From an uncultured Actinomycetota bacterium (GTDB lineage: Bacteria; Actinomycetota; Geothermincolia; Geothermincolales; RBG-13-55-18), in NCBI GenBank assembly GCA_964415205.1, contig CAYPZH010000003.1:1736-46183 (forward strand): a DNA stretch of 44,448 nucleotides, in the 5' to 3' direction. This document shows positions 24,875-44,448 of the stretch, in pieces (the first letter of the stretch is position 1; each line of letters opens with the position of its first letter). The notes under the pieces are model-generated. The model searched no databases and was not told where the DNA came from. It was given only the letters and a program-made list of their open reading frames with translations. Made by a program: the position numbers and the translations under genes.

Positions 24875-24875
24875 C

Positions 24876-27463: not shown

Positions 27464-27466
27464 GAG

Positions 27467-28597: not shown

Positions 28598-28750
28598 TAG
28601 CCCGCCGCAAAGACCGGACGCTCGCCGTTTCCTCCGGGCAGCGTGACCACGTCAGGAGACCTCGCCGCTGCATCGCCGTGGACGCATGCAGTCACCGGCG
28701 GCATCCCCCATCCGCCTGCGGTTACCCGCAAAGCCCGGCCGCCCTCCCCG

Positions 28751-28778
28751 TTGACAAGCGCCCCGCATGGTCTAATAT
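28751..28778 (+). promoter_or_regulatory. Sigma70-type promoter, TTGACA-16-TAATAT
   Basis: A consensus -35 hexamer and a near-consensus -10 hexamer sit inside a conspicuously AT-rich island about 45 nt upstream of the ATG at 28822. Confidence 0.55.
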
Positions 28779-28821
28779 ATATAATATGCATAACTTAATA
28801 AACTTGAACATAAACGTCCTC

Positions 28822-29529
28822 ATGGAGGTTATCTTCCCCACCCGCTGTTCGGGATGTGGGGCTTACGGCGGTTTTCCGCTATGCCCGCAGTGCAACGCCG
28901 CCCTTCCCCTGATAAGGGGCCCGGCCTGCCGCCGTTGCGGCGCCCCGACCCCGCGGGAGACGGACGGGTGCGGCGAGTGTACGCGGCGCGCGAAAGACCT
29001 CGATGCTGCGGTCGCTCTGGCCACCTACGAGGAGCCCCTGCGTTCGGTCATCCACAAACTCAAGTACGGCAACGGTTGGAGGCTGGCGCCCCTCCTGGGC
29101 GCCATGGCCGCCGTCCGTCTCGCCCCGGCGCTGTCATCACAGCGGACGCTCCTCACCTTCGTGCCCATGCACAAACGCCGCAGGCGGATGCGCGGTTATG
29201 ACCACGCCGAGAGGCTTGCCCGGGGAGTGGGCAGGGCCCTGGGGATGGAACCCGGACGCCTGCTGGAAAGGGTGCGGGCGACCCCCGCCCAGGCCTCCCT
29301 CAGCCACGAGGAAAGACAGAGCAACGTCAAGGGCGCTTTTCGGGCGGTGGGGGAGCGCCTGAACGGTGAGGAGGTCGTCCTGGTGGACGACGTCATGACC
29401 ACCGGGTGCACGCTCTCCGAATGCGCGGCCGCCCTGAAGGCCCACGGCGCCGGTCGGGTCACCGCCTGCGTGCTGGCGCGGGACCTGCTCGGGTGCACGA
29501 GGCCCCGGCCGCGGCAGCGGAAAGGATGA
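28822..29529 (+). CDS. comFC: ComF family protein (ComFC-type phosphoribosyltransferase-domain protein)
   Basis: N-terminal 4-Cys zinc finger (CSGCG...CPQC, CRRCG...CGEC), KYGNGWRL, and the PRT motif VVLVDDVMTTGCTL. The listed ORF from 28267 is an upstream read-through. Confidence 0.88.
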   Translation: MEVIFPTRCSGCGAYGGFPLCPQCNAALPLIRGPACRRCGAPTPRETDGCGECTRRAKDLDAAVALATYEEPLRSVIHKLKYGNGWRLAPLLGAMAAVRLAPALSSQRTLLTFVPMHKRRRRMRGYDHAERLARGVGRALGMEPGRLLERVRATPAQASLSHEERQSNVKGAFRAVGERLNGEEVVLVDDVMTTGCTLSECAAALKAHGAGRVTACVLARDLLGCTRPRPRQRKG

Positions 29530-29596
29530 CTTCCTGCGAAAGAACCCCCTGTGATATCATTCCTCGCGGGCTGCGGGCGCGAGACGGCGAGGGGAC

Positions 29597-31180
29597 ATGT
29601 CCGACCTTGAGCGGGATTTCGAGCAGGCACTGGGCAAGATAGCAGGGGGGATGTTCGTCGTCTTCCTCGGCTATATGGCCTCGTCAGTGTTCCATTTTCT
29701 GGAACGGCTCGTGCTCTTCCGCGGACTTTCCAAGAACGACTACGGGGTGATGATGCTGGGCGTGGCCATCGTAGAGTTCGCGTTCATCCTCGCGGAACTC
29801 GGGCTGCGCTCCGGCTCCCCCCGCTTCATATCCTATTACCGCGGGCAGAAAGACGATGCGCGCGTCAAGGGCACGGTATATGCGACCCTCAAGATAGGAG
29901 CCGTATCGAGCTGCGCCTTCGCCCTCGCGCTGTTCTTCTCCGCGGGTTTTTTGGCCAGCCTCTTTGATTCTCAGCAACTGGAGTCCGTACTGCGGGCCTA
30001 CTCCGTCAGCCTGCCCTTCTACGTCATGGTGATCATACTGTGCAGCGTCTTCAGGGGTTTCGACCGCGTCGGCGTCAAGGCGGTGTTCGAGGACGCCGTG
30101 ATGTGGGGACTCCTCGCTTTCTTCCTGCTGTTGGCCGTGGCCACGAAGTCCGGGCTGGTCTGGGCGGCCGGGGCCCTGGCGGCGGCCGCGGCGATCACCC
30201 TCTTCCTGCTGTTGGTCTATTCGATGCGGGCGTTGCCGCGCCTGTTCGAGACGGTGGCGCCGGTCAGGATGGGAAGGGGCCTGCTCCTGTTCTCGCTCCC
30301 CCTGGCCATGGAGGCGACGCTCAACGTCGTGTTGATCTGGGCCGACACCATCATGCTGGGGGCATACAAGACCACAGAGATGGTCGGCGCCTACAATACC
30401 GCCGTCCCCTTCGCGACCCTGCTCTCGGTGTTCATGTTCTCGCTCATGTACATATATCTGCCGGTGACCACCAGGCTCCTTTCCGAGGGGAAGAAAAAGC
30501 AGATAAGGGGCATCTTCCGCAGCTCGACCAAATGGGCTTTCACCCTCACCCTGCCCCTGCTGCTCATCTACATCCTCTTCCCCCGGCAGCTCATCGTGTT
30601 CATCGCCGGGAACGCGTACGAGGAGGCATGGCTCGCGCTGGTCATCATCTCGCTGGGGGTGTTCGTCAACGTCTTCGTGGGCCCGAACGGGGTGACCCTG
30701 GTGGCCCTGGGCAAGTCACGCCTGATCCTTTTCGACAGCATTGTGGGGGTGACCGTCAACCTGGCCCTCAACTTCCTGCTCATCCCGGGTTACGGCATAG
30801 AGGGAGCGGCATTCGCCACCTTCGCCGCTCTTTTGGTCATCAACGTGCTCAAATCGGTACAGATCTATTGCCTCGAGGGCATACACCCCTTCACCTCCCG
30901 CTATCTCAAGCCTGTGCTGCTGGCGGCGCTGGGGGCTCTCGCCACCTACCCCCTCTTCTCCTGGCTGCTATCCGGCAGTAGCTGGTTCCTGGTCCTGCTC
31001 TACCCGGTTTACCTGACCGTGGCCCTGCTCATGCTGCTGCTCTCTAGGAGCCTGGAGGCGGAGGACGTCGCGGTCGTCGTCCTCGTCCTCACACGGCTGA
31101 AGATCAGGCCCGACCGCGTGAAAAAATCCCTGTCCAGGTTCGTGGGGGGAGAAAGCGGGCGGGACGGCTCTCCCGCCTAG
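29597..31180 (+). CDS. Wzx-like oligosaccharide flippase (MOP/PST family), second copy
   Basis: 527 aa with about 14 TM helices and polysaccharide-biosynthesis-protein architecture. Confidence 0.8.
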   Translation: MSDLERDFEQALGKIAGGMFVVFLGYMASSVFHFLERLVLFRGLSKNDYGVMMLGVAIVEFAFILAELGLRSGSPRFISYYRGQKDDARVKGTVYATLKIGAVSSCAFALALFFSAGFLASLFDSQQLESVLRAYSVSLPFYVMVIILCSVFRGFDRVGVKAVFEDAVMWGLLAFFLLLAVATKSGLVWAAGALAAAAAITLFLLLVYSMRALPRLFETVAPVRMGRGLLLFSLPLAMEATLNVVLIWADTIMLGAYKTTEMVGAYNTAVPFATLLSVFMFSLMYIYLPVTTRLLSEGKKKQIRGIFRSSTKWAFTLTLPLLLIYILFPRQLIVFIAGNAYEEAWLALVIISLGVFVNVFVGPNGVTLVALGKSRLILFDSIVGVTVNLALNFLLIPGYGIEGAAFATFAALLVINVLKSVQIYCLEGIHPFTSRYLKPVLLAALGALATYPLFSWLLSGSSWFLVLLYPVYLTVALLMLLLSRSLEAEDVAVVVLVLTRLKIRPDRVKKSLSRFVGGESGRDGSPA

Positions 31181-32193
31181 GGAGCGGGCCCGCCGCCCTG
31201 CAGTGTCCGCCCCGGGACGTCGTTGTCTTTGACGGCGATGACGTACAGGGAGTCGCCCCTGAGACCCAGGTTGGCCGGCAGCAGAAGCAAGGTGAGCAGG
31301 GCATAGGCGGCGATGCCCGGGGCTTTGCGGCGGCAGCGTGCATACACGCTCTCAAACCCCGGGAATACTTTACCAAGACTTTCCAGCAGGCCGGCCGCAG
31401 GGGTCACGGTGTAGACCTGCCGGACCGCGAAGCCGTTTTGCGCCAGCAACGCATGCAGGCTGGCCGGCGAGAAGTGCAGGAGGTGCAGCGGGACCTGGAG
31501 GGGGAACCACCTGGACCCGAAAAGGCGGAGGAGGTGGCTTGCGGTATTGGGGACCCCGATGATGAGGACCCCATGCGGCCGCAAGATCCTCTCTATCTCC
31601 TTCAGCGTCGCATGGGGGTCCCTGGTGTGTTCTAAAACGTGGTTCGCGTAGACGATATCGAAGGACCCGCCCTCGAAGCCCGCGTCCCAGATCTCTCCCG
31701 AGAAGATCTTCAGGCCGCGCCTGGAGCCTCGCAGCGCCGCGACAGGCGAGATATCGACGCCCCGTGCGTCGAGCCCCACCTCCTGCCACAAGGCCATCTG
31801 GTCTCCGGCGCCACAACCCAGGTCCAGGATGTGGCGGCCGGGAAAGAAAAGCGGCACCATCTGGGGGACGTTTCTCATCAGCCCGAAGAGGAGCTTCTCC
31901 ACCAGGACGGTTTTCCCGGACCCGGTCCGGCGCAGAAAAAACAGGGACAGCACCAGCGCTCTTGCCACGTGTCTCCACCAGGGCAGGCTTTCCAGGCTGA
32001 GGGACGTGAAGGAATAATAGTCGCCCCCATAGAAGCCCAGGGTTTCGGCTTCGCTCGGCAAGGGGTGGGTGAAGACGACGCCGCAGCCGCCGCATTCGTA
32101 CAGCCGGTATCCTCCAAAATAGTTTTCTTCCGCCTTGAGCAGCGGGAACAGGCCAACTTCCGCCGATAGGCAGACAGGACATCGGCGCTCCAC
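31177..32193 (-). CDS. Class I SAM-dependent methyltransferase with an N-terminal zinc ribbon
   Basis: CPVC...CGGCG ribbon, SAM motif I ILDLGCGAGDQ, and VYANHVLEH in the post-I region. Its stop codon overlaps the stop of the convergent flippase gene within a CTAG palindrome. Confidence 0.82.
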   Translation of the reverse strand: MERRCPVCLSAEVGLFPLLKAEENYFGGYRLYECGGCGVVFTHPLPSEAETLGFYGGDYYSFTSLSLESLPWWRHVARALVLSLFFLRRTGSGKTVLVEKLLFGLMRNVPQMVPLFFPGRHILDLGCGAGDQMALWQEVGLDARGVDISPVAALRGSRRGLKIFSGEIWDAGFEGGSFDIVYANHVLEHTRDPHATLKEIERILRPHGVLIIGVPNTASHLLRLFGSRWFPLQVPLHLLHFSPASLHALLAQNGFAVRQVYTVTPAAGLLESLGKVFPGFESVYARCRRKAPGIAAYALLTLLLLPANLGLRGDSLYVIAVKDNDVPGRTLQGGGPAP

Positions 32194-32476
32194 TTCTCAC
32201 CGCCCTGACAGCCGGGAGCAGGCAGAAACCAGCCCCCCTCGAGAGACTGTGTGCCGCTGCCGGTATCGCCCTGTCATCGGTACTCCTGCGGTGGCCGCAT
32301 CGCCGTTTAACCCCACATTATGCTGGCATTATACCATCGCTGCGCAAGCCGGGCCGCGTCCTTCATGTCTTCTTTTTCTTACTGCGGTCGGTGTTGCTGT
32401 ATTATCATATGAGCATCGAGCTTGCGAGGCTCAACCGGCACGGGCTGGATAAGGGCGATTCAGCAGAGGGGGGCAT

Positions 32477-33493
32477 TTGGAGCCCGATATCAGCGTAGTG
32501 GCGCTCAACTACAATACCAGGGATCTGTTGCGGGCCTGCCTGTACTCCGTGCTGGAGTGCACGGGTGAGCTCGAGCTCGAGCTCATCGTGGTGGACAACG
32601 CCTCCCGGGATGGGTCGGCGCTCATGGTCGGAGAAGAGTTCCCTGACGTTAAGCTGATCGCTAACGACCGCAACCTGGGTTACGCGCGCGGGACGAACGC
32701 GGGTATCAGGGCGTCCTCCGCACCCTACGTGCTGTTGCTGAAACCGGAAACGGTGGTCTCTGGCCGCGCCCTCCGGCTCATGCGCGACTATCTCGAAGCG
32801 CACCCGGAGGTCGCGATGGTGGGGCCCAGGCTGGTGGACGGGGACGGAGTGCATCAACAGAGCTGCCATTATTTCACCGTGCTCGCCTGGAAACACGCCC
32901 TGCGTTACCTGCTCGTCCTCCTGGGCGGCCCCGGATCGAGCGTCTTCGGGCTCTCCACCGATCCGGGCGACAAAGGCAATGGCCCCGTGGAGGTGGACTG
33001 GGTCTACGGTGCCTGTGCGCTGGTGCGCAGGGAAGTGCTGGATGATGTGGGCATGCTGGACGAGAACATCTTCCTGTACGGGGAGGACATGGACCTGTGC
33101 TTCAGGATGGCCAGAGCGGGATGGAAGACCGTCTACCTGCCCCAGGCGGAGATCATCCATTACGGCAACCAATCCTGCAAACATGTATATGGAGAGACGC
33201 GCAGCCTCAGGAGGGCCAGAGCCCGTATAGAAGTGATAGATTATTTCCAGCGCAAGCATTTCGGCGCTGCTCATTCGTATATCATAAGGGCTCTCATGTG
33301 CGGGGGCTCCCTGGCGGCGGCGGCGTCTCTGGGCTCGTTGTACCTTTTCGGCGGCAGGGACCCCGACACCGGCGCCAGGAGCGTCTACGCGGCGAAGGTC
33401 GCCGTCGCCTGTCTCGAGAGCATGCTGTTCAAGCCGGGCGCACCTAGGGCTGCCGTGGAGGGAAGGTCATATATATGCGGGCGCTGGTCATGA
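32477..33493 (+). CDS. Glycosyltransferase family 2 (WbbL-like)
   Basis: TTG start. ISVVALNYNTRDLLRACL...VVDNASRDGS...NLGYARGTNAG...GEDMDLCFR motifs are present. Confidence 0.88.
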   Translation: MEPDISVVALNYNTRDLLRACLYSVLECTGELELELIVVDNASRDGSALMVGEEFPDVKLIANDRNLGYARGTNAGIRASSAPYVLLLKPETVVSGRALRLMRDYLEAHPEVAMVGPRLVDGDGVHQQSCHYFTVLAWKHALRYLLVLLGGPGSSVFGLSTDPGDKGNGPVEVDWVYGACALVRREVLDDVGMLDENIFLYGEDMDLCFRMARAGWKTVYLPQAEIIHYGNQSCKHVYGETRSLRRARARIEVIDYFQRKHFGAAHSYIIRALMCGGSLAAAASLGSLYLFGGRDPDTGARSVYAAKVAVACLESMLFKPGAPRAAVEGRSYICGRWS

Positions 33494-34176
33494 TCCTCGC
33501 CCACAACGAGGAGAACAGCATAGGCGATGTCATCGCCGAGGTGCGGTCCGGCGTGCAGGCCGACGTGCTGGTGGTGGACGACGGCAGCGACGACAATACG
33601 CGGGAAAAAGCGCTGGAGGCCGGAGCGCGATGCGTGTCCCTCGCCTTCAACGCGGGCATAGGGGTTGCGGAGCAGACCGGCTTCCAGGTGGCGGACAATG
33701 AAGGCTATGACCTCGTGGTCAGGATGGACGGAGACGGTCAGCACGATCCCGCGGGCGTCCCGCTCTTCATAGCCTCCCTGAACGAGGGCCGGGCAGACCT
33801 CGTCATCGGAAGCCGCTATCTCTACGGCCGCGGCGGCGAGGGCTTAAACATAAGGGTCATCGGCAACCGCTTCCTGTCCTGGCTGGTCAGCCAGCTCACT
33901 GACTACTGCATCACCGACGCCACCTGTGGGTTCCGGGGATACGCCCGCCCGGCCATCGAGGCCTTCGCCGACGATTACCCGGATGACTTCCCGGAAGTGG
34001 AGGCGCTGATGATGTGCCACCACAGGGGTTTCAGGGTCGAGGAGATATCCATCGATTCACTGCGGCGCCAGAGCGGGGAATCGGTCATCAATGCGGGCGT
34101 CGCCGTGTACTACATGTGCAAGGTCACCCTGGCCGTGGCCATAAGCGGCCTTAGGAAGAGACGACAGGCGGGATAG
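33475..34176 (+). CDS. Glycosyltransferase family 2, polyprenol-phosphate sugar synthase-like
   Basis: VMILAHNEENSIGDVI...VVDDGSDDNT...RMDGDGQHDP motifs. It overlaps the upstream gene by 19 nt. Confidence 0.85.
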   Translation: MRALVMILAHNEENSIGDVIAEVRSGVQADVLVVDDGSDDNTREKALEAGARCVSLAFNAGIGVAEQTGFQVADNEGYDLVVRMDGDGQHDPAGVPLFIASLNEGRADLVIGSRYLYGRGGEGLNIRVIGNRFLSWLVSQLTDYCITDATCGFRGYARPAIEAFADDYPDDFPEVEALMMCHHRGFRVEEISIDSLRRQSGESVINAGVAVYYMCKVTLAVAISGLRKRRQAG

Positions 34177-34200
34177 CGGGAAGATGGGAGGGAAACCGTC

Positions 34201-34605
34201 TTGAACTGGAACATCACCATTACCGGTATAGTCGTGGGGGTGTTGATGATCGCCCTCGTCCTCGAGCTGGTGAGAAGGAGGTCGCTGGGGGAGCGCTACG
34301 CTCTGCTCTGGCTGCTCCTGGCATTGGCCATCATAGTGCTCAGCGCCTGGCCCGCGCTCCTGCAGAGGCTGGCCGACCTGCTGAAGATATACTATCCGCC
34401 CTCGATCATCTTCGGGCTCGCCTTTGTCTTCATCTTCGCCATCATGATACATTTCTCATCGGTCTTGAGCAGGCACGGCAAGGGCTACAACAGGATGGTC
34501 CAGAGGCTCGCGGTCCTGGAGGAGAAAGTGCTGAGCCTGACGGAAGGCGGGTGCGCGGAGGAGAACGGGGATGATGAGGAAGATGTCGACGCCCAGGGCG
34601 GCTGA
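34201..34605 (+). CDS. DUF2304-family small membrane protein
   Basis: TTG start, 134 aa. The layout is TM1, RRR, TM2, an amphipathic segment, TM3 and a C-terminal coiled tail (RLAVLEEKV), matching DUF2304 proteins that typically follow GT2 genes. Confidence 0.65.
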   Translation: MNWNITITGIVVGVLMIALVLELVRRRSLGERYALLWLLLALAIIVLSAWPALLQRLADLLKIYYPPSIIFGLAFVFIFAIMIHFSSVLSRHGKGYNRMVQRLAVLEEKVLSLTEGGCAEENGDDEEDVDAQGG

Positions 34606-36700
34606 TAGCGGAGGCGGACCGCCGGTGAGAGAAAGCGCCTGGCGCAGAGGGGCCAGTGGACTCGACCCCTATACCGGGGCACTGCTGGCGCTCATCCTGG
34701 TGATGTGCATCCTGTACACGGCCTTTTTCTTCGGAGCGGACCTGCCCTTCCGCAAGGCCAGTGCCGACACCTTCCCCCACATGGGCCTGCTGCGCACGGT
34801 CGAGGACCGCATGGGGCTGGGCGAGGAACTCGACCCGGACTTGATCCCCGGTCTCTACAGCGGGAACGAGCGCAGCGGCATCAACTACGTGGCCATGGCG
34901 CTCATCGCCTCCCTGCCCGGAGCGTCCAGCTTCACCGCGCTGTATATCCTCGGCCTGTTCGGCATCGCCGTGTTCCTCTCGGGCATCTTCATCCTCGCCC
35001 GCACCCTCTCCGGTTCCTGCCGCGTTGCCTTCCTGGCGGCCGTTTTCTCCCTCGTCCTGTGCAGTACAGAAGCGGTGGTCAGGGGCAGCTCCTTCTCTTT
35101 CGTGGAGGTCCTGGCCTGCGCCCATTATGCTTCCGTTGTGTCCATCGGGCTGATGATGCTGGCCCTCTCCCTAAACATCCGCTACCTGGCGGAGGGGGAC
35201 TGGAGACATTACATCCTGCAACTCGTGCTGGCGGCGCTCGCCTTCAACATCCATCTGCTCACCGGCATTATGTACTTCCTCGTCCTGCTCATACTGGTGG
35301 CCGTCAACGCCGCCTGGGACAGGCGCCTCTCCCGCCGCCACCTCCTGCTTTTGTCGCTTATCCCCGCCACACTCCTTCTCGTCTCCCTGTGGCCCCTCTA
35401 CCACTGGTGGGTGATCCTCAAGGAGGGGGACGTGGTGCTTGAGGGGCCTTACAAGTACTACTCCACGTTCGACTTCGTCTTCCAGTCCTCGGTCATCTTC
35501 TTCATCGGGCTCCCCTTCCTGTTCAAGAAGGAGCGCGGGAGGGTTTTCCTGCTCGCCTGGACGCTCATCTTCGCGCTCATCTCCGTGTCCTTCCTTTTGC
35601 CGCTGAGCGTGGCCTTCCACTGGAGGTTCGCGTTCGTGGTGCGCGTACCCCTGGTGATCGGCCTGGCCATGGGGGTGGGCTTGGACATCTGGAGGCTTCG
35701 TCGCTGGAGGGCTTTCGCCATCCCCGTGATCCTGGGTATCGTCGGGGTGTTCGTCGTCGCCTCGATGGTCATAAACGTGCAGCGGTTCAAAAAGGTCATG
35801 CACGGCAACGACCTCGAGGCGGTGGAGGAGTTCGCCGATTCGGGGGAGGGGGGCATGAACCTGGTGGCCCAGCCGAAGCAGGGGTGCGTTCTGATGGGCA
35901 TATCCGACTACAGCGTATATTCGGTCCCGACGGCGCGCGACGAGAGGAACGAGCGCCTGCTGGAGCTGTACTATACGCCCGTTATGGGGGAATGGGAGGG
36001 GTTCCTGCGGGAATACGGGTTCCAGCGGGTGCTGGTTAACCGCTCGCCTTCCCTTGCCGGCACGGCGCTGCTGCTGAACGGCACGCTATTGGAGAGGAAC
36101 GAGGGTTTCGACCTCTACGGCGTGGACCCGGATGCCCTGGACACGGAGATCGTCCAGAGAATAAAGGACCGCAAGCTCGAGCGGAGCGAGACCGCCGGAG
36201 GCTTTTTCCGCTTCGACGACTGGGCTTACTTCCAGCAGGCCGGAAAGGGCATGATCGGCATCGAGCGGGCGGAGGGGGACGGCGAGACGGGCGAGCCATA
36301 TATGCTTTTCAGCTCGGACGCTCCGGGCGGGGAACTCGTCCTCGCCAACCGCGGCTATATCGAGGTGGACCCAAACGTGCGCTACAGGATCGATGTAGAT
36401 TATCGCATGCCGCCGGAGGCGGGGCGGTTATACCTGCTCCTCTACCAGTACAGCGAGGCCTCCCCCGAGGGAGAGGTCGCGTACGAAAGAAAGAAGGTCT
36501 TCGGGGAGCCCGGGGCATGGACGCAGAGGAGGTTCATCGTGGGTCCGGGGAGCGACCCCAGGGCGAGATTCGTTCTCAGCGAAGAGACCAGGTACGTGAA
36601 GATAGGCTTGCTGGTTTGTTTCGAATCCGCAGGTCAGATGGGCCTGCGCCTGCTGAATTTCTCGTCCGCAAGGGTGGCTCTAGACCGGGAAAACCCGTAA
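34571..36700 (+). CDS. Large polytopic membrane protein with a C-terminal beta-sandwich/CBM-like domain (GT-C-like candidate)
   Basis: 709 aa. More than 10 TM helices are followed by a about 270-aa soluble domain. It overlaps the DUF2304 gene by 35 nt. The start is uncertain. Confidence 0.55.
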   Translation: MMRKMSTPRAADSGGGPPVRESAWRRGASGLDPYTGALLALILVMCILYTAFFFGADLPFRKASADTFPHMGLLRTVEDRMGLGEELDPDLIPGLYSGNERSGINYVAMALIASLPGASSFTALYILGLFGIAVFLSGIFILARTLSGSCRVAFLAAVFSLVLCSTEAVVRGSSFSFVEVLACAHYASVVSIGLMMLALSLNIRYLAEGDWRHYILQLVLAALAFNIHLLTGIMYFLVLLILVAVNAAWDRRLSRRHLLLLSLIPATLLLVSLWPLYHWWVILKEGDVVLEGPYKYYSTFDFVFQSSVIFFIGLPFLFKKERGRVFLLAWTLIFALISVSFLLPLSVAFHWRFAFVVRVPLVIGLAMGVGLDIWRLRRWRAFAIPVILGIVGVFVVASMVINVQRFKKVMHGNDLEAVEEFADSGEGGMNLVAQPKQGCVLMGISDYSVYSVPTARDERNERLLELYYTPVMGEWEGFLREYGFQRVLVNRSPSLAGTALLLNGTLLERNEGFDLYGVDPDALDTEIVQRIKDRKLERSETAGGFFRFDDWAYFQQAGKGMIGIERAEGDGETGEPYMLFSSDAPGGELVLANRGYIEVDPNVRYRIDVDYRMPPEAGRLYLLLYQYSEASPEGEVAYERKKVFGEPGAWTQRRFIVGPGSDPRARFVLSEETRYVKIGLLVCFESAGQMGLRLLNFSSARVALDRENP

Positions 36701-36794
36701 GGCCATATGGCGGGACCCACCCGGCCTTGAGGCCGCGCGACCTCGCGCCGCCCGTGAGGCAGGCTGTATTTACCGCTCTCTCCGCGATGGCCGT

Positions 36795-37622
36795 TCAGAA
36801 GTAGAGTACCTCCCGTAAGGGCTGAAAATCGAAGGCATCCAGGAGCTTTCCCAGTTTGTCCAGGGCCTTCCCGACCCCGTAGAAGAGGGCGAACCGCGAC
36901 AGCGGGTCGATGCCCGCGGGGATATCGCTCAGGGGGCGGATATCGCGGGGGTGGATATAGATGACCGCCGGCCTTTCCTCCAGGACCTTGCGCAAGAGAA
37001 AGACTACCAGCCACATGGGCTCAAACCTCAGGTAAACCCCACCGCACAAGGGGATACTCACGAGCCGTCCGCGGTAGACGGTCAAGGGGAATTCCACCAG
37101 GCTTCCCCCGCCGGAGGTCCCTTCACCGTGCGGCGTATAAGGAGCGAGCGGAGCGCCGGGACAGCCGTACAGGGGCGTGCGCATGGGGAATACGCTGGAA
37201 CTGTAGCGGTAACCCAGGTCCTTTTCCAGCGTGTGGTGGAGCCAGGGCGTATCGTGCCCGGCCGAGCAATTGGCGGCGCGGAAACCAAGCGGCCTCTCGC
37301 CGCAGATAGAGGCGAGGATTTCGACGGTCTTGCTCTCGCTGCGGATGAACTCCCCGCGCGTGGTCTCACGCAGGTTCTTGTGCTCGTACCCGTGGGACCC
37401 TATCTCGTGGCCTGCGGCGCAGATCTTCTCCACCAGCCCGGGGTCCCGCTCGGCCAGCGAGCCGAGGACGAAAAAGGTCGCGCGCGCGTTCTTCTCTTCC
37501 AGGAGAGCGAGCAGGTCACCGACGGCGGGCGTCACAATATCCTCGTGGCCCTCGTAGTCTTTCCGGGGCAGGTCTCCGGCCCACCACGGCTCGACGTCTA
37601 CGCTGAGAGCTATCCCGTGCAT
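36795..37622 (-). CDS. Polysaccharide deacetylase (CE4/NodB) with a DUF3473-like C-terminus
   Basis: SVDVEPWW, ATFFVLGSLAE and GHEIGSHGYEH metal-binding motifs; 275 aa. Confidence 0.85.
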   Translation of the reverse strand: MHGIALSVDVEPWWAGDLPRKDYEGHEDIVTPAVGDLLALLEEKNARATFFVLGSLAERDPGLVEKICAAGHEIGSHGYEHKNLRETTRGEFIRSESKTVEILASICGERPLGFRAANCSAGHDTPWLHHTLEKDLGYRYSSSVFPMRTPLYGCPGAPLAPYTPHGEGTSGGGSLVEFPLTVYRGRLVSIPLCGGVYLRFEPMWLVVFLLRKVLEERPAVIYIHPRDIRPLSDIPAGIDPLSRFALFYGVGKALDKLGKLLDAFDFQPLREVLYF

Positions 37623-37740
37623 GCCTGCCTCCCGCTGCCGCGCTTATCGGCTCTCCCGGCGGGTCGCTCGTGATCACGCGCACGCGAGAATATTAGCACC
37701 TTGGCCGCGCGCGCGGAACCGGCCCGCCAGCCGGTAGCGG

Positions 37741-38697
37741 TCAGACGAAAACCTCCGCGAGCGCCCAGGCGATGACCACCGAGATCAAGGGCGCCACCGC
37801 CCATACCACGGCCGCCCTGCGCGCGGCGGGATTGCGCAGCATGAAGGCGTGGCCGTTCTTGACCACGCCGATGGCGAAGATGGCCCCCAGCTTGATCTGC
37901 ACCTCCGAGGCGGGCATACCGAGCCCGCTGGCCAGGAGCAGGAGGGAGGCGCCCACGAGACTCACCAGGGTGGCGCTGAGCACGCCCAGGGGGCTGATCT
38001 CCTTGCCCGCCGTCTCCAGGTTGCCGAAGCCCAGGGCGGCCGCGCCCATGCCGAAAAACGGGGCCAGGAAAAGGGTGGCGGTCAGGGCACCGGCGACGCT
38101 CGCCCCCGCCAGCGGGCCCGATGCGTTGGCCACGTTGTTCGACCCTATGGAGAAGGCGGCGTAACAGGAAGAGGCGATGACGAACGTCTGCAACAGGCGG
38201 TAACGGCGCATGACGTTCTGTGCCAGGACGTAATGGCGCAGGCGCGGATACAGCCACTTGCCCAGCACCAGGGTGATGACATAGGCGGCGAGGGGCAGGA
38301 TGAACCACAAGGGGACCATCAGCCTGAAGGAGGAACCGCTGAGCCTGCCCACGGATATGCCCACTCCCACCAGTGACCCCACCGTTACCTGGCTCGTGGA
38401 TTGGGGGATCTTGAGAAGGTTGGCGAGAAAAAGGGTGATGGTGGCCGAGGTGATGACGACCAGAGCGACCTTCACGTCGGTGTAGCTGGCGGGGATGATG
38501 TCGTGCGAGATGGTCTCCGCGACCCTGCCCCCGGCCACCACCGCCCCCAGGAGTACGAAGAGAGAGAAAAAGGCGACCGCCTGAAAGCGGTTGAGGAAGC
38601 CTGCCCCGTAGGAAGCGGCCATGGAGGGCGCGAAGCCGCTGGCGCCCATATTCATGGCGAAGAAGGAGACGAGGATGACGAGCAATGCCGTCTGCAC
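37741..38697 (-). CDS. cysP: PiT-family anion permease, CysP-like (probable sulfate permease)
   Basis: AMNMGASGFAPSMAASYGAG and SIGSNNVANASGPL are the duplicated PHO4/PiT signature in the divergent CysP-like form. It is divergently adjacent to sat, as in the B. subtilis cysP-sat-cysC arrangement. The substrate call is inferred. Confidence 0.6.
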   Translation of the reverse strand: MQTALLVILVSFFAMNMGASGFAPSMAASYGAGFLNRFQAVAFFSLFVLLGAVVAGGRVAETISHDIIPASYTDVKVALVVITSATITLFLANLLKIPQSTSQVTVGSLVGVGISVGRLSGSSFRLMVPLWFILPLAAYVITLVLGKWLYPRLRHYVLAQNVMRRYRLLQTFVIASSCYAAFSIGSNNVANASGPLAGASVAGALTATLFLAPFFGMGAAALGFGNLETAGKEISPLGVLSATLVSLVGASLLLLASGLGMPASEVQIKLGAIFAIGVVKNGHAFMLRNPAARRAAVVWAVAPLISVVIAWALAEVFV

Positions 38698-38832
38698 CCG
38701 GGTCCTACCTCCTCCCGCCGGGAAAAAGTCCTCAAAGGAGAGGACCTACCTCCTGGCCCTGTGGTTTATACTCGAAAAACCGAGCGGCAGTTCACTTTGC
38801 GGTGGTAAAAACTGCGCGCGCAACGAGCCGGT

Positions 38833-38861
38833 TTCAATGATTAGATATAATAATATATAAT
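38833..38861 (+). promoter_or_regulatory. Promoter-like AT island (TTCAAT-17-TATAAT) in the divergent cysP / RHH-sat intergenic region
   Basis: gattagatataataatatataatt is the most AT-rich stretch of the window and lies 40-70 nt upstream of the ATG at 38900. Confidence 0.4.
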
Positions 38862-38899
38862 TAGCCGGAATTGAACGAAAGGTCGGGTGTCAGAGAAAG

Positions 38900-39133
38900 A
38901 TGAAGAAGAAAGAGCAGGAGAGCAAGTTCACCTCGGTCTCCATCCCTACCCCACTCTTCGAGAAGGTAAGGAAGCGCATCGAGGGGACCGGTTTCACCTC
39001 CGTGTCCAGCTACGTAGTGTACGTGCTGCGCGAGGTACTCGCGGAGGACGCGGTGGATGAAAAAGAGGCCTTCTCCCGGGAAGACGAGGAGAGGGTAAAG
39101 GAACGTCTGCGCTCCCTGGGGTACCTGGACTGA
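38900..39133 (+). CDS. Ribbon-helix-helix (CopG/Arc/MetJ-type) DNA-binding protein
   Basis: 77 aa. FTSVSIPTPLFEKVRKRI (beta-strand plus helix A) and SVSSYVVYVLREVL (helix B). It ends 10 nt before sat. Confidence 0.65.
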   Translation: MKKKEQESKFTSVSIPTPLFEKVRKRIEGTGFTSVSSYVVYVLREVLAEDAVDEKEAFSREDEERVKERLRSLGYLD

Positions 39134-39143
39134 GGAGGAGACG

Positions 39144-40286
39144 ATGCCGTTGCCGCACGGCGGTCGCCTGGTCGACCGCATGATCCCTGACGCGGACAGG
39201 GAGGAAGCCGTGGCGGAAGCCCGCGGCCTGAAGAGCCTGCGCCTGGACACGGAGCAGGCCCGCGAGGTGGAGAACATCGCCCAGGGGATCTACAGCCCCA
39301 TCGGGGGATTCCTGCGACGGGAGGAATACGCGAGCGTGCTCGAGCACGCTCGCCTCCCGGGCGACGTGCCCTGGGCCTTACCGATCGTGCTGGACCTCCC
39401 GCCGGACAGCGGGGTAGAAGAGGGAGACCGGCTGGCTTTGTGGGAGACGGATGACGGGCCCCTGGCGGTGATGGAGGTGGAGGAGATGTATCCCCTCGAC
39501 CGCGCCCGCCACGACACGCTCGTCTACGGCACCGAAGATATCTCACACCCCGGGGTGGCCAAGACCGCGGCCATGGGGGACCTTCTGGCGGGCGGACCCA
39601 TCACCCTGCTGCGGCTGACGCCAAGCCCCTTCGAGAGGTACCGGCTTAGCCCGCGCGAGACCAGGGTGCTCTTCCGCGAACTGGGCTGGAGGCAGGTGGT
39701 GGGCTTCCAGACGCGCAACGTCCCCCACCTCGGCCACGAGTATGTGCAGAAGACCGCCCTCACCTTCGCCGACGGGCTGTTCATCAACCCGGTCATCGGC
39801 AAGAAGAAGAAGGGTGATTTCACCGACGAGGCCATCCTGGCCACCTACCAGACCCTCATCGACAACTACTACCTCAAGGAGAGGTCGGTCATGGCCATCC
39901 TGCAGTACGAGATGCGCTACGCGGGTCCGCGCGAGGCCATACACCATGCCATTATGCGCAAGAACTTCGGCTGCACCCACTTCATCGTGGGAAGGGACCA
40001 TGCCGGGGTGGGCGATTTCTACCACCCCTTCGCCGCTCAGGAGATATTCGGCGAGTTCCCTGACCTCGGCATCGTGCCGGTGTTCTTCAACACCTTCTCT
40101 TACTGCCTGCGCTGCGGCGGGGTGGTCAACGAGAAGATCTGCCCCCATGGCCCCGAGGACCAGGTGGGTTTCTCCGGCACCCGCATGCGGGAGCTCATCA
40201 TGGAGGGCAAGGTGCCCCCGCCGGAGATGCTACGGCCGGAGGTTGCCGAGGTGCTCCTGGCCATCAGCGACCCCTTCGTGGAGTGA
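39144..40286 (+). CDS. sat: Sulfate adenylyltransferase (ATP sulfurylase)
   Basis: QTRNVPHLGHEY and GRDHAGVG motifs; the 380-aa length is typical of homo-oligomeric Sat. Confidence 0.93.
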   Translation: MPLPHGGRLVDRMIPDADREEAVAEARGLKSLRLDTEQAREVENIAQGIYSPIGGFLRREEYASVLEHARLPGDVPWALPIVLDLPPDSGVEEGDRLALWETDDGPLAVMEVEEMYPLDRARHDTLVYGTEDISHPGVAKTAAMGDLLAGGPITLLRLTPSPFERYRLSPRETRVLFRELGWRQVVGFQTRNVPHLGHEYVQKTALTFADGLFINPVIGKKKKGDFTDEAILATYQTLIDNYYLKERSVMAILQYEMRYAGPREAIHHAIMRKNFGCTHFIVGRDHAGVGDFYHPFAAQEIFGEFPDLGIVPVFFNTFSYCLRCGGVVNEKICPHGPEDQVGFSGTRMRELIMEGKVPPPEMLRPEVAEVLLAISDPFVE

Positions 40287-40289
40287 GCC

Positions 40290-41648
40290 ATGGCCGGCGG
40301 CAAGAGGCTTGTCATCATCGGGCTGGACTGCGCATCGCCGCGCCTGCTCTTCCACGCCTATCCGGGCATGCTGCCCAACCTGGAAAGGCTGTGCGAGAAC
40401 GGCTGGTGGGGGGAGGTGGAATCGTGCATCCCCCCCATCACCGTGCCCGCATGGATGGTCATGTTCACCGGGAGGGAGCCGGGGGAGTTGGGCATGTACG
40501 GCTTCCGCAACCGCGTGCCGGGCACCTACAACGATACCAGGGTGGCGGACTCCACTTCGCGGCACGTCCCCGCCCTGTGGGACAAGGCCGGCGAGGCGGG
40601 GCTGCGCAGCTGCCTCATGGGAGTCCCCCCTTCCTACCCGCCCTTCGAGGTGAAGGGCGATCTCATCTCCTGTTTCCTCACCCCCGGCACCGACCGGCCG
40701 TACACCTTTCCGCGCGGCCTGGCGGTGGAGCTGGAGGAGCAGGAGTTGATCTACGTGCCGGACGTTCCCTTCCGCAAGGAGAATAAAGCCGATATCCTGG
40801 CGAGCCTGCGCGAGATGACCGCGGGGCACTTCGAGATAGCCTGTTACCTTGCGGAGGAGCATCCCTGGGACCTCTTCGTCATGGTCGAGATAGGCCTGGA
40901 CCGCGTCCAGCACGCCTTCTGGAGGTATCAGGACCCCACCCACCACCTCTACGAGGCCGGCACGCCTTACACCCACGCCCTGCGCGACTATTACCGCCTG
41001 CTGGACCAGGGCATCGGGGATCTGCTGCAGGCCTGCGGCCCCGATACGTCCGTGGCCGTGGTTTCCGACCACGGCGCCAAGGGCATGAAGGGCGCCTTCT
41101 GCGTGAATCAGTGGCTGGCGGAACATGGTTACCTCACCCTGAGGGATGAGGTGGAGCGGGGCACCAGGCTGGAGGACGCCCCGGTGGACTGGTCCAGGAC
41201 GAAGGCCTGGGGCTGGGGAGGTTATTACGCCCGCGTATTCCTTAACGTCGAGGGGAGGGAGCCGCAGGGGGTGATCCCTGCGCGGGACTTCGAGGCCGAG
41301 GTAAAGAAGCTGGCGGAGGAGATACGGGGCATCAGGGGACCGCAGGGCGAAGAGTGGGCGACGCGCGCGGTGACGCCCGGCGAGACCTACAGGCATGCCG
41401 AGGGGGACGTTCCCGACCTCATGGTGTTCTTCGACGACCTTTCCTGGAGGGCGGCGGGTACCATGGGCCACCCCTCCATGTACCTGGAGGAGAACGACAC
41501 CGGGCCGGACGACGCAGTGCACGACTGGAGAGGTGTGGGCATATTCTACCATCCCCACGAGGACATGCGCGAGAAGATCGACCGGGACTTCCTCCGCATA
41601 CAGGAGCTGTACGGGATCTACGGAGAGATGCTGGGTATCGAGGTGTGA
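40290..41648 (+). CDS. Alkaline-phosphatase-superfamily protein, type I phosphodiesterase/nucleotide pyrophosphatase-like (paralog 3), cytoplasmic
   Basis: LVIIGLDCASP, IPPITVPAWMVMFTGREPG and VVSDHGAKG motifs align with paralogs 1 and 2. There is no signal peptide. It starts 3 nt after the sat stop and ends 21 nt before cysC. Confidence 0.8.
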   Translation: MAGGKRLVIIGLDCASPRLLFHAYPGMLPNLERLCENGWWGEVESCIPPITVPAWMVMFTGREPGELGMYGFRNRVPGTYNDTRVADSTSRHVPALWDKAGEAGLRSCLMGVPPSYPPFEVKGDLISCFLTPGTDRPYTFPRGLAVELEEQELIYVPDVPFRKENKADILASLREMTAGHFEIACYLAEEHPWDLFVMVEIGLDRVQHAFWRYQDPTHHLYEAGTPYTHALRDYYRLLDQGIGDLLQACGPDTSVAVVSDHGAKGMKGAFCVNQWLAEHGYLTLRDEVERGTRLEDAPVDWSRTKAWGWGGYYARVFLNVEGREPQGVIPARDFEAEVKKLAEEIRGIRGPQGEEWATRAVTPGETYRHAEGDVPDLMVFFDDLSWRAAGTMGHPSMYLEENDTGPDDAVHDWRGVGIFYHPHEDMREKIDRDFLRIQELYGIYGEMLGIEV

Positions 41649-41669
41649 TCTATCAACGGAGGTAAGCAT

Positions 41670-42206
41670 ATGGAGAAGGGATTCGTGGTCTGGCTCACCG
41701 GCCTTCCGGCTTCGGGAAAGACCACCGTGGCCGTGGACCTGGAGAAGAGGCTGCGCGATAGGGGCCTGCGGGTGGAGGTCATGGACGGCGACGAGGTGAG
41801 AAAAGGTCTCAGCCGGGACCTCGGCTTCAGCAAGGAGGACCGGGAGATACACGCCATGCGCGTCGCTTACGTGAGCAAGCTGCTCTCACGCAACGGCGTG
41901 GCGGTGATCGTGGCCCTCATCTCCCCCTACCGCTCTTTCCGCGCGGCCATAAGAAAGGATATCGACGACTTCATCGAGGTCTTCGTGCGCTGCCCGGTGG
42001 AGGAATGCGCCAAGCGCGACCCCAAGGGCCTCTACGCCAAAGCCCTGGCAGGCGAGATCAAGGATTTCACCGGCGTGGATGACCCCTACGAGGACCCGGA
42101 GAACCCCGAACTGGTCCTGGACACCTACGCCGAGGAGACCTCCGAGAGCGTGAACAAGGTCCTGGACTGGCTTTCGGTGCACGGGTATCTCGACGGTTCA
42201 TCTTGA
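41670..42206 (+). CDS. cysC: Adenylylsulfate (APS) kinase
   Basis: P-loop WLTGLPASGKTTVA, DGDEVRKGL, and the ALISPYR motif; 178 aa. Confidence 0.93.
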   Translation: MEKGFVVWLTGLPASGKTTVAVDLEKRLRDRGLRVEVMDGDEVRKGLSRDLGFSKEDREIHAMRVAYVSKLLSRNGVAVIVALISPYRSFRAAIRKDIDDFIEVFVRCPVEECAKRDPKGLYAKALAGEIKDFTGVDDPYEDPENPELVLDTYAEETSESVNKVLDWLSVHGYLDGSS

Positions 42207-42422
42207 CAGTAAGGGGTCAGGTCTTGTTTTTTGGATACCACGGTATTTTGCCTGTTGGCACATGCGGTTTTGCAGCACGAAACAAAGACCTGACCCCTTA
42301 CTGTCTTATAAACGTCGGCCCTGGAAGATGTGCGTGTCTCAGGCGATAGGTATGGCCATGCATCGTGACGAAGGTCCGAGGTAATGGCGACTGGGGCCAG
42401 CATAAATGCTGGCCCCAATGGC
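42207..42422 (+). repeat. Composite hairpin element, copy B
   Basis: Hairpin 1 spans 42207..42303 (cagtaaggggtcaggtctt...aagacctgaccccttactg). The conserved block aacgtcggccctggaagat is at 42311..42329. The 37-nt block gtaatggcgactggggccagcataaatgctggcccca is at 42381..42417 and differs by one base from 25044..25080. Confidence 0.8.
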
Positions 42423-42479
42423 TCCAGCGCTACGCGTCGCTTGCCGCGAACGTTGGGGAGGCCGGTAGGGGTATAATGG

Positions 42480-42860
42480 AACCAGAAGGCTTCGGCCCGG
42501 GTCTGTGGTTGAAAGTCGATGCCAGCCGCAGGCGAAGCGACCCACGTAAGCCAACTCTTGGTTGGTGAGCATGGTGCGGCTTAGGGGTAAGACCTGCCCG
42601 GCTTTAAAGCCGGAGAAGCGCATTAGTGGCGTACGGGCGAAGTCCCCAGAGGATCCCGTGAGCTGCGAGACGCTCAGCAGGCGAGTGTGGGGTAAAAGAC
42701 CAGGTCAGCCGGGTTTCGAAGCCTTCTACTATAGGAGGCCAGCCCTGGCCCTTTTGTTGGCGGGGGGCTGAACGTATGCTAGGCTTATGCGAGTCGAGCG
42801 TGAAAGCGCCGGGTTAAGGCCCGGGGCCGGTAGTTACCGTCATAAAGGTCCTGAACAAGG
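42480..42860 (+). ncRNA. Candidate structured ncRNA upstream of hpf (raiA-motif-like); boundaries approximate
   Basis: There is no credible ORF here. A TATAAT lies at 42472..42477. Local helices are dense: ggc-UUCG-gcc at 42488..42497, ccaac/gttgg at 42551..42565, and ccggc-tttaaa-gccgg at 42598..42613. An intrinsic terminator follows. Its position directly upstream of hpf/raiA matches the known genomic context of the raiA motif RNA. The consensus could not be checked by eye. Confidence 0.4.
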
Positions 42861-42894
42861 CCCATACCGCACCTGAACCTGGTATGGGCTTTTT
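42861..42894 (+). terminator. Intrinsic terminator (cccatacc-N12-ggtatggg-cttttt)
   Basis: An 8-bp GC-rich stem followed by a T-run, 25 nt upstream of the hpf start and before its AAGGAGGGGA RBS. Confidence 0.6.
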
Positions 42895-42919
42895 AGCGGA
42901 AAGGAGGGGAGCGGGCGCG

Positions 42920-43462
42920 ATGCAGATCATCGTCAAGGGCAAGAACCTGGAGGTCACGGAGGCGCTGCGCAAATATGCTCTGGAAAAGGTCGGCAGGGTC
43001 GAGAAATACCTGGACAACATCCAGAAGACGGAGATAGAGATGAGCGTGGAAAGAAACCCGAAGATACAGGAGAACCAGGTTGTGGAGGTTACCATATTCT
43101 CGAGCGGGCCTATAATCAGGGCCAAGGAGTCGGCCGTTGACATGTACCAGGCCATCGACATGGTCATGAACAAACTGGAGCGGCAGGCGCGCAGGGTCAA
43201 GACGAAGATGATCCATCGCTCGCATCATGCCAGGAACCCCTTCAAGGGATCGGCCTTGAGCGAGGAGGAGAAGCCGGAAGAGCCGATGATCGTGAAGACC
43301 AAGAGCTTTCCCCTCAAGCCCATGACCCCCGAGGAGGCCTGCCTGCAGATGGACCTTCTGGGCCATGACTTCTTCGTTTTCATCAACGCCGAGACGGAGG
43401 ATACCAACGTGGTTTATAGAAGAAAAGATGGGGACTACGGCTTGATCGAGCCGGGAGGATGA
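42920..43462 (+). CDS. hpf: Ribosome hibernation promoting factor, long form (HPF/RaiA family)
   Basis: MQIIVKGKNLEVTEALRKYALEKV...YLD N-terminal S30AE domain plus a C-terminal dimerisation domain (PMTPEEACLQMDLLGHDFFVFINAET...VVYRRKDGDYGLIEP). The ATG is preceded by AAGGAGG. Confidence 0.92.
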   Translation: MQIIVKGKNLEVTEALRKYALEKVGRVEKYLDNIQKTEIEMSVERNPKIQENQVVEVTIFSSGPIIRAKESAVDMYQAIDMVMNKLERQARRVKTKMIHRSHHARNPFKGSALSEEEKPEEPMIVKTKSFPLKPMTPEEACLQMDLLGHDFFVFINAETEDTNVVYRRKDGDYGLIEPGG

Positions 43463-43562
43463 TATGCGCAAGTTCATGGACATGGTGCGCCAGCTGCTCG
43501 ACTACATCGTCAGGCGCGGGGCGTCCATGCGCCTGTGACTGGCGCAGCGAGGAAGGACGGCC

Positions 43563-44448
43563 ATGGATAAAAGGGTTATGGCACTGGCTTCCCTGGGGTT
43601 GGCGGGGGCGCTTGGGATAATACTCTACCTTACGCTGGCGGGAAACCAGCCGGTTTTCTGGTTCTCGGTGCTCCTCCTCGGGATCCTGGTGGTCATCTGC
43701 GAGACCCTGGGCGAGCACATGGCCTCTGGAGGGAGGTCCACCTACGGCATCATCGCCCTCTTCGCTGCCATAGCCGCTCTCAACACTCCCTCGGCGATGA
43801 TCGTGGCCCTGGCCGCTGCCTTCCACCTGGGCCTGGCCAAACGCAGGGACGACGTCTGGGAGATGACCGCAAGCGCGGCATTTTATGCCCTCTGCACTTT
43901 TATGGCGGCCGTGGTGTACCATGCCCTTGGCGGCGCGACGCGGGCCTTCACCACCTCGAACGCTCTTCGCTCCCTGCCGGCGCTGCTGGTGGCGGCGGCC
44001 GTTTTCTGGGTCGTGAACACCCTGCTGGTGGCGGCGGCGCTGCGCTGGTCCAGGGGTTCTGACCCCGTTGCTTTCCTCAAGGGCGATGCACTGAGACTTC
44101 TGCCCAATCAGATCATTTATGCGCTGGTGGGGATGGGCATGGGCATCATCTACGCCCAGAACGCCTTTCACGAGATGCTCGACGCCCAGGGCGCCATGGT
44201 TCTGGACAGCTTCGGAAACCCGGTTATCCTGGGCACGCTGGCCGAGTCCCTGCGCGGCATCTTCGCCGTATCCGCACTCATGGCGGTACTCGGCGTGGCA
44301 TGGTATTTCAGCGGCAAGAACATCGAACTCCTGGAGGCCTACGACCACAGCATTGAGACGCTGGCCACCCACCTGGAGAAGCGCGAGCCGTACCTAGACG
44401 GGCACGCGGTGCGGGTGGCGCAGAACGCGGCCCTCATCGCTGAACGCA
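43563..44448 (+). CDS. Membrane-anchored HD/HD-GYP-domain protein, 3'-truncated by the window edge
   Basis: The frame is open from the ATG at 43563 to the window end and is not in the supplied track. Multiple TM helices are followed by LEKREPYLDGHAVRVAQNAALIAE, the typical start of an HD(-GYP) phosphohydrolase domain. Confidence 0.7.
   Translation, partial: MDKRVMALASLGLAGALGIILYLTLAGNQPVFWFSVLLLGILVVICETLGEHMASGGRSTYGIIALFAAIAALNTPSAMIVALAAAFHLGLAKRRDDVWEMTASAAFYALCTFMAAVVYHALGGATRAFTTSNALRSLPALLVAAAVFWVVNTLLVAAALRWSRGSDPVAFLKGDALRLLPNQIIYALVGMGMGIIYAQNAFHEMLDAQGAMVLDSFGNPVILGTLAESLRGIFAVSALMAVLGVAWYFSGKNIELLEAYDHSIETLATHLEKREPYLDGHAVRVAQNAALIAER

Follow-up and report, generated by a model that had tools for sequence, protein, structure and literature searches.

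What occupies the long interval in front of the hibernation-factor gene hpf in this uncultured actinobacterium, and does it belong to hpf or stand on its own? In the window, by which we mean the whole stretch of DNA analysed here (44,448 nt), the gap between the stop of cysC (42206) and the ATG of hpf (42920) measures 713 nt. The APS-kinase gene cysC (41670..42206) was recognised by Pfam APS_kinase (6e-62), and hpf (42920..43462, +) encodes a long-form hibernation-promoting factor of 180 aa that matches both Ribosomal_S30AE (5.7e-24) and Ribosom_S30AE_C (7.9e-32). Proteins from relatives align with it from residue 1, and an AGGAGG ribosome-binding site (42902..42907, +), read directly, is located 12 nt 5' of the ATG. 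The initial annotation had described an ORF-free gap of about 0.45 kb at this place; the gap is indeed non-coding, and its true length is the 713 nt given above. It holds no credible gene: a Pfam search with two ORFs of the gap (42562..42771, +, 69 aa; 42339..42623, -, 94 aa) returned no match, and the ORFs of 30–97 aa found between cysC and hpf are of the kind that arises by chance in G+C-rich DNA.

The structured stretch upstream of hpf is a raiA (ModT) RNA, an ordinary member of a known family. Rfam family RF03072 (raiA) matches 42492..42717 (+) with a score of 168.1 bits and E = 1.4e-42, where the gathering score is 101.3, and the match spans the entire model (positions 1–209 of 209). This result bears out the initial annotation, which had called a raiA-like motif here and had named the raiA covariance model as one way to check it. 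RF03072 is the sole family above threshold in the whole window (Rfam 15 scan), present as one copy in 44 kb, in a family with a single copy per chromosome, and a scan of 42150..42960 with permissive filters gave the same result for raiA and nothing else significant. The region, where dense short helices had been remarked on at first sight, folds far better than chance: the minimum free energy of 42484..42760 is -124.5 kcal/mol (z = -3.37), a stability that none of 200 shuffles reached.

Relatives were MAGs retrieved with the hpf protein (69–88% identity) and labelled Candidatus Solincola, Geothermincola or Geothermincolales; they belong to Actinomycetota, class Ca. Geothermincolia. A full-length raiA lies upstream of hpf in 18/18 of the closest Geothermincolia-type loci (164.8–180.5 bits), and nine additional hpf loci with raiA came from a metagenome scan. 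No raiA was found within 3 kb of 20 other hpf loci, from Lachnospiraceae, Gaiellales, other Actinomycetota, Armatimonadota and others. Across 19 aligned genomes the raiA core is almost invariant, though the flanks are unalignable.

The genomic context had been judged to suit raiA, and it does. Published raiA RNAs are found upstream of raiA/hpf in 66% of cases and downstream of comFC in 74% (PMC10861870). Here hpf follows 202 nt downstream, and in most close relatives comFC adjoins on the other side: it is on the same strand and ends about 0.1–0.7 kb upstream of raiA, which is the canonical comFC-raiA-hpf order. In the window comFC (28822..29529; DZR_2 and Pribosyltran domains) lies 12.9 kb upstream of raiA, separated from it by a block of glycan and sulfation genes. 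The window has an insertion on the cysC side in common with L005 and L081, and a palindromic repeat at 42205..42305.

At first the element had seemed longer than the family consensus of roughly 200 nt, and possibly a variant or a carrier of insertions. No insertion in the RNA accounts for the extra length: the model match gives it 226 nt, which grows to about 244 nt once the extended closing helix is included. The original outline (42430..42894, 465 nt) looked too long because it takes in the raiA promoter region, the RNA and a second conserved module, the promoter and leader of hpf.

Architecture of the RNA and its closing helix

The predicted RNA covers about 244 nt (42484..42727, +), with the Rfam match inside it and its limits set by the helix ends at 42484 and 42727. 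It is of the raiA subtype that lacks P2 and has P6-P7-P8. P1 is formed by GCCCGG-GU-CUG-UGGUU (42495..42510) pairing with GACCA-GGU-CAG-CCGGGU (42698..42714), in columns that are invariant among 19 genomes, and the conserved bulges GU (P1a/P1b) and GGU (P1b/P1c) are both present.

Beyond these segments P1a is extended by an 11-nt perfect inverted repeat, whose 5' strand AGAAGGCUUCG (42484..42494, +) pairs with the 3' strand CGAAGCCUUCU (42717..42727, +); a pyrimidine/U-rich tail comes next in most relatives. Measured over 25 distinct sequences, the total P1a is 14–20 bp long, mostly 17–18, with a 1–2-nt bulge. The closing helix P1a is thus about 17 bp here and 9 bp in the Rfam model, for a helix whose length has been called "highly conserved" (PMC12968392). 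Within a genome, the two arms pair at -15.6 to -27.1 kcal/mol and are generally each other's best partners, whereas pairing is much weaker when the arms are taken from different clades (-8.5 kcal/mol, for instance, for the window with L013). We therefore conclude that the P1a extension has evolved by compensatory change.

This helix also accounts for the "UUCG tetraloop hairpin" of the initial annotation (GGCUUCGGCC, 42488..42497), a candidate that we rejected. The letters in question are really one strand of the 11-bp perfect long-range helix with 42717..42727, and relatives break the local hairpin (GGCUUCAGCC, GACUUCCGCC) while keeping the long-range helix through compensating changes.

Inside P1, the junction is of the GAA(A) type with no P2, and P1c leads to P3 without an insertion (UUGAAAGUCG). 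P3 and PK1 were assigned by reading the sequence against the cryo-EM description (PMC12968392). In this assignment P3a pairs GUCG (42515..42518) with CGAC (42538..42541), P3b pairs GCC with GGC, and the P3b apical loop AGCCGCA (42524..42530, +) serves as the 5' strand of PK1, with 7 Watson-Crick pairs to UGCGGCU (42575..42581). The sole change to PK1 in relatives is a C>U in L016 and L017, which yields a U-G wobble. P4-P5, P6 and P8 are present as well. The distal P7 is a long, variable hairpin (42628..42666, +) that places 30 nt at the position of a 12-nt insert in the model, and it shows compensatory changes (alignment columns 186–195 / 215–224). Covarying helices in relatives, which had been put forward as a further check on the raiA call, are hence found in the P1 extension and in distal P7. 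An RNAalifold consensus fold was informative for P1 and P7 only; it did not reproduce the published pseudoknotted core because that core is invariant in these genomes.

The exposed linker UUAGGGGUAAG (42581..42591, +) is invariant in the clade members that were aligned or read. Its segment UUAGGGGUAA (42581..42590) keeps 8/10 positions of UUAGA(C/A)GUAA, the consensus published for the exposed linker between PK1 and P6 (PMC12968392), and, with regard to pseudoknot PK2 and the long-range G-A contacts of the family, the linker GAGUGUGGGGUAAAA (42683..42697) agrees with the consensus of the Rfam model. The two-base deviation is the one point that would speak for a chance match or a degenerate, non-functional remnant of raiA. 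Set against the E value of the full-model match, the near-invariance across genomes with unalignable flanks and the expression of the RNA in metatranscriptomes described below, such a reading has next to no probability. KhpA/KhpB bind raiA RNAs in Clostridia (PMC12968392), and the exposed linker would be a likely binding site for KH-domain proteins.

Transcription of raiA and of hpf

A -10 box, TATAAT, was read directly at 42472..42477 (+), exactly where the initial annotation had placed it. It is kept in 19/19 aligned genomes and ends 6–8 nt ahead of the base with which pairing in the closing helix begins; two relatives have TATGAT or TATCAT in its place. This conserved distance therefore predicts a transcript that starts at about 42484 and spans about 244 nt. 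No conserved -35 box was found for the raiA promoter, and a strict sigma-70 scan of 42100..43000 found no two-hexamer promoter, either for raiA or for hpf; both promoters are argued from conservation.

Exact contigs of the RNA occur in three sludge metatranscriptomes: 42496..42723 (228 nt), 42538..42723 (186 nt) and 42508..42683 (176 nt), at depths of 19, 21 and 4, respectively. The three runs come from one study and the contigs are assembled, so that the RNA ends are good to about 5–12 nt. At ≥97% identity, those three runs yielded no further RNA contig from 20 kb of the window (24449..44448), and public RNA runs contain next to nothing of the hpf leader and gene. Since the contigs are limited to raiA, with nothing else from 20 kb, we conclude that the RNA is discrete and abundant. 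The initial annotation had opposed a discrete RNA to a mere long 5'UTR of hpf, and it is the former that the metatranscriptomes display. The raiA of a relative was recovered as a stand-alone contig of 227 nt from a wetland metatranscriptome. Elsewhere, raiA/ModT has been described as an independent and trans-acting transcript whose abundance equals that of stable RNAs (PMC10861870, PMC11706538), a picture with which these contigs agree.

A low-depth (2x) RNA contig from a relative spans the equivalent of 42715..42863 and bridges the raiA 3' end and the hpf leader, possibly as a result of minor read-through past the closing helix or of DNA carry-over. In most relatives no canonical terminator was found directly after the raiA RNA. 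The terminator scan reported a weak terminator-like hairpin in the window (42737..42750, +; 5 bp and a 4-nt loop, then CTTTTGTT), specific to this genome, with no equivalent in the relatives read (e.g., L001, L004 and L007).

We propose that transcription of raiA starts at about 42484, the first base of the ~17-bp closing helix, under a -10-type promoter of its own (TATAAT). The RNA would then fold into the published raiA architecture and accumulate as a discrete, very abundant species of about 230–245 nt that ends at the closing helix. Its 3' end may arise by termination at that helix and the U/pyrimidine-rich tail, or by trimming back to the helix.

A second promoter is predicted between raiA and hpf (42757..42785, +), with a -35 box TTGGCG (42757..42762), N17, TGC and a -10 box TAGGCT (42780..42785). 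Every relative has TTGGCA-like and TAGGCT-like hexamers downstream of raiA, with TGn just before the -10 box, and the arrangement TTGGCA-like/N17/TAnnnT recurs in 18/19 genomes, where the spacer is fixed at 17 nt and varies in sequence. Fixed spacing combined with a varying spacer sequence is a signature of sigma-70-family promoters, to which we therefore assign it. Insertions of about 80–350 nt lie between raiA and this promoter in L002, L005, L006, L008, L012, L137 and L169. The insertion in L005 and L081 includes the palindromic repeat that the window carries at 42205..42305, a mobile palindromic element. In L003 and L015 the insertion comes after the T-run that precedes hpf, and the hairpin before this T-run stays with the promoter module. 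Given the conserved hpf promoter and the insertions in between, we conclude that raiA and hpf are separate units.

These observations bear on the possibility that a long hpf leader begins with raiA, which would then control hpf in cis, in the manner of a riboswitch. Such an arrangement would suit the position of raiA 202 nt upstream of hpf and in the same orientation, the Rfam type label of the family ("Cis-reg; riboswitch"), the shortage of strong terminators right after the RNA in most relatives and the 2x contig that bridges the two. It is nonetheless very improbable in view of the conserved promoter with its fixed 17-nt spacer between raiA and hpf, the 80–350-nt insertions (one a mobile palindrome) that separate the two in relatives, and the contigs that stop at 42723 in two runs where hpf went undetected. 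Published statistics on distance and orientation, together with trans complementation, point the same way (PMC5737381, PMC10861870, PMC11706538). For raiA and hpf we did not find an aptamer coupled to an expression platform within one transcription unit, as a riboswitch would have.

Overall, we favour an own-promoter, discrete raiA/ModT RNA that acts in trans, followed by a separate hpf unit with its own promoter and leader; we put the probability of this reading at roughly 0.93. Rather than being a cis-regulator of hpf, raiA would act as a stable RNA or RNA-protein particle at the exit from growth, as the family suggests. Genetic work in C. acetobutylicum and C. difficile has demonstrated trans action, and deletion alters the stationary-phase transition in Clostridia (PMC10861870, PMC11706538); for the present lineage it is extrapolated from Clostridia. 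The hpf gene would be driven by its own sigma-70-family promoter and damped or regulated by a hairpin in its leader.

The hpf leader and its terminator-like hairpin

With a start inferred 7 nt after the -10 box, the predicted hpf leader is about 128 nt long (42792..42919, +). As a whole it folds no better than shuffles (z = -0.55), and it returned no Rfam match. Its first hairpin, GCGCCGGG-UUAA-GGCCCGGGGC (42806..42827, +), recurs in L006, L008, L011 and L137 with other sequences; apart from the two hairpins of the leader, no covariation was found in it.

The second hairpin is terminator-like (42857..42894, +) and consists of the stem GGCCCAUACC/GGUAUGGG, a 12-nt loop and U5. Its arms (42857–42868 and 42881–42892) are 92% complementary, with T5 at 42890..42894; the terminator scan, which allowed loops of ≤8 nt, missed it. 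The stem is invariant in 14/14 aligned Solincola-type relatives while loop and flanks vary, and the stem hairpin is unique in the window (0 expected by chance). L016 and L017 have a hairpin of different sequence with a T-run at the same place, and L013, L014 and L021 keep the promoter and raiA and have no hairpin. The loop and the 5' flank of the hairpin share a direct repeat, CCUGAA.

The initial annotation had reported an intrinsic terminator at 42861..42894, 25 nt ahead of the hpf ribosome-binding site, and had attributed it to raiA. The hairpin and its T-run are real, whereas the 25 nt run to the ATG of hpf, and the AGGAGG is only 7 nt from the T-run. The attribution to raiA had to be abandoned: the hairpin is about 130 nt past the 3' end of the RNA and downstream of the conserved hpf promoter. 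With the T-run only 25 nt from the ATG, hpf transcripts must read through the hairpin.

The hairpin might still serve raiA as a distal terminator, so that a second isoform of about 410 nt would exist next to the short RNA, like ModT(L)/ModT(S). In C. difficile, two isoforms with different 3' ends are published (PMC11706538), the hairpin with its U-run is the first strong terminator downstream of raiA, and the low-depth contig covers 42715..42863. The C. difficile extension is, however, about 45 nt and a single stem-loop, whereas the one required here would be about 170 nt and contain a conserved promoter. The abundant contigs end at 42723. The hairpin also stays with the promoter module in L003 and L015, is 80–350 nt further from raiA in the seven genomes with insertions before the promoter (L002, L005, L006, L008, L012, L137 and L169), and is missing from L013, L014 and L021, which have raiA. 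A long isoform ending at this hairpin is therefore unlikely.

As part of the hpf leader, the hairpin is most likely a partial or conditional terminator (an attenuator) or a protective 5' structure; it could alternatively mark where a small leader RNA ends. Taken further, the latter would make 42757..42894 a separate small-RNA gene (promoter, RNA of about 100 nt, terminator), with hpf expressed only by read-through. The module is self-contained, in that insertions fall upstream of its -35 box or, as in L003 and L015, downstream of its T-run; a stem sequence invariant in 14/14 relatives would be unusual for a mere terminator; and the 25 nt before the hpf ATG are too short for another promoter. 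We regard a small-RNA gene as a doubtful reading that still deserves some weight, since no RNA contig for the module was found in any run searched, shuffles of its sequence fold just as stably (z = -0.55) and nothing covaries besides the two hairpins. Moreover, L013, L014 and L021 have the promoter and not the terminator, as expected if the promoter serves hpf.

Several other elements of the leader were considered and rejected. A leader peptide encoded by a 27-codon ORF from the ATG at 42787 would begin 1 nt after the -10 box, and its frame is lost in L001; no conserved leader peptide was found in relatives. The antiterminator candidate GGGCC/GGCCC has 5 bp, is too weak and is unconserved, and a pairing of the loop with upstream sequence (AGGU/ACCU) is lost in L006, L008, L011 and L137. 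Complementarity of the leader to the exposed linker of raiA amounts to merely 4–5 nt. A metagenome scan with the leader hairpin pattern gave at least 120 matches, of which 9 were hpf-linked relatives and the others unrelated hairpins; it is uninformative on a regulon.

More speculatively, this may be an undescribed Geothermincolia hpf leader in which the GGCCCAUACC/GGUAUGGG stem and U-run are read by a sequence-specific factor, perhaps one tied to raiA or its protein partners. We hold this to be quite unlikely. If true, there would be a mechanistic link between raiA and ribosome hibernation, and the hairpin would be the first concrete molecular target of raiA.

Comparison with known systems

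The RNA shares with described raiA/ModT RNAs (RF03072; PMC5737381, PMC10861870, PMC11706538, PMC12968392) the full-length model match, the P1a/b/c bulges, the GAA(A) junction, P3 and PK1, P4-P5 and P6-P7-P8, as well as the position upstream of hpf (raiA), a comFC that adjoins in relatives, an own promoter and a discrete, abundant transcript. It differs in its linker, which is UUAGGGGUAA here (a GG variant) instead of UUAGA(C/A)GUAA, and in the distance of 12.9 kb to comFC. Its host is an uncultured actinobacterium of the Geothermincolia, a lineage that, to our knowledge, is not known to sporulate. The RNA resembles Ca-raiA of Clostridium acetobutylicum, which represents the subtype without P2 and with P8, in having no P1c-P3 insertion and in having P7 and P8. 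It departs from Ca-raiA in its long P7, which is closer to that of Nocardioides Ns-raiA (14 bp). P2 is present in Ns-raiA, the structure from an actinobacterium, and absent from the actinobacterial RNA of the window. Details specific to the clade are the GG linker variant, the lack of P2 in an actinobacterial RNA and the displacement of comFC. A literature search found no paper on raiA in Geothermincolia; the GTDB genome survey (PMC10861870) should have covered this lineage.

Among bacterial structured RNAs with an unsolved biochemical role, raiA/ModT is one of the most widespread and abundant, so well-delimited natural examples are useful. This locus leaves existing knowledge of the family unchanged, and adds to it a clean case in a deep-branching class of uncultured actinobacteria. 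It also contributes environmental transcript evidence for a discrete RNA that dominates over neighbouring mRNAs, evidence for a native closing helix of about 17 bp from transcription start to 3' end, and a clear separation of the raiA and hpf transcription units.

The hpf leader compares best with the attenuators that rely on an intrinsic terminator in a 5' leader, a general class under the control of riboswitches or proteins. In common with them it has a promoter, an RNA of about 100 nt, a G+C-rich hairpin with a U-run and then a ribosome-binding site. It differs from them in that no conserved antiterminator pairing, Rfam match or conserved leader peptide was found for it, and in that its stem is conserved in sequence, beyond structure. 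This hairpin with an invariant stem is the sole item at the locus that is out of the ordinary, and it suggests regulated read-through into the hibernation-factor gene.

Gene order around raiA and hpf

The predicted raiA (ModT) RNA (Rfam RF03072; 42484..42727, +) lies upstream of hpf (42920..43462, +). In most of the close relatives among the hpf loci L001-L017, comFC ends about 0.1-0.7 kb upstream of raiA. In the window, comFC (28822-29529) lies 12.9 kb from raiA, and the interval holds glycan and sulfation genes. Because comFC adjoins raiA in most close relatives, and the loci L005 and L081 share with the window an alkaline-phosphatase-like enzyme and cysC adjoining raiA, the comFC-raiA-hpf locus appears to have gained this block by an insertion specific to the lineage. 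Three loci from Actinomycetota outside Geothermincolia (L018, L019 and L020; Gaiellales and others) carry the same comFC/hpf gene pair minus the raiA RNA, with a gap of about 60 nt from the end of comFC to hpf. Downstream of hpf lies a membrane protein gene (43563-44447) whose product, a putative sensor, has a weak MASE9 match under the Pfam cut-off. The gene is kept beside hpf in nearly all relatives, which makes comFC-raiA-hpf-membrane sensor the syntenic core.

A multi-copy palindromic repeat

Directly 3' of the cysC stop (42206), a palindromic element, its arms 26 nt long (AAGGGGTCAGGTCTTGTTTT...), occupies 42205-42305, and a second hairpin lies at 42387-42422. In DNA run X1 the unique flanks have a word depth of 4.2, whereas the element reaches 168 and the second hairpin 112; the loose flanks of the element were many and differing. 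We conclude from this depth and diversity of flanks that the element is a multi-copy MITE/REP-like repeat. In L005 (approximately 2740-2830) and L081, an insertion of the same palindromic hairpin separates raiA from the predicted hpf promoter.

The hpf leader and start codon

The stem of the terminator-like hairpin in the predicted hpf leader, GGCCCAUACC/GGUAUGGG (42857-42894), is unchanged across the window and 13 aligned relatives, while its loop and the neighbouring leader sequence diverge. A direct repeat common to the loop and 5' flank reads CCUGAA in most aligned loci and CGAUGAA/CGAGCAA in L010 and L125. The upstream ATG at 42884, taken from the ORF table and lying within this hairpin, was rejected as the hpf start in favour of 42920, the probable true start, which alignment with relatives and an AGGAGG site support.

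The exposed raiA linker

The linker between PK1 and P6 reads UUAGGGGUAA in the window (42581-42590), as it does in those Geothermincolia-type sequences that were aligned or read. It differs from the published raiA linker, UUAGA(C/A)GUAA, the proposed binding site of KhpA/KhpB (PMC12968392).
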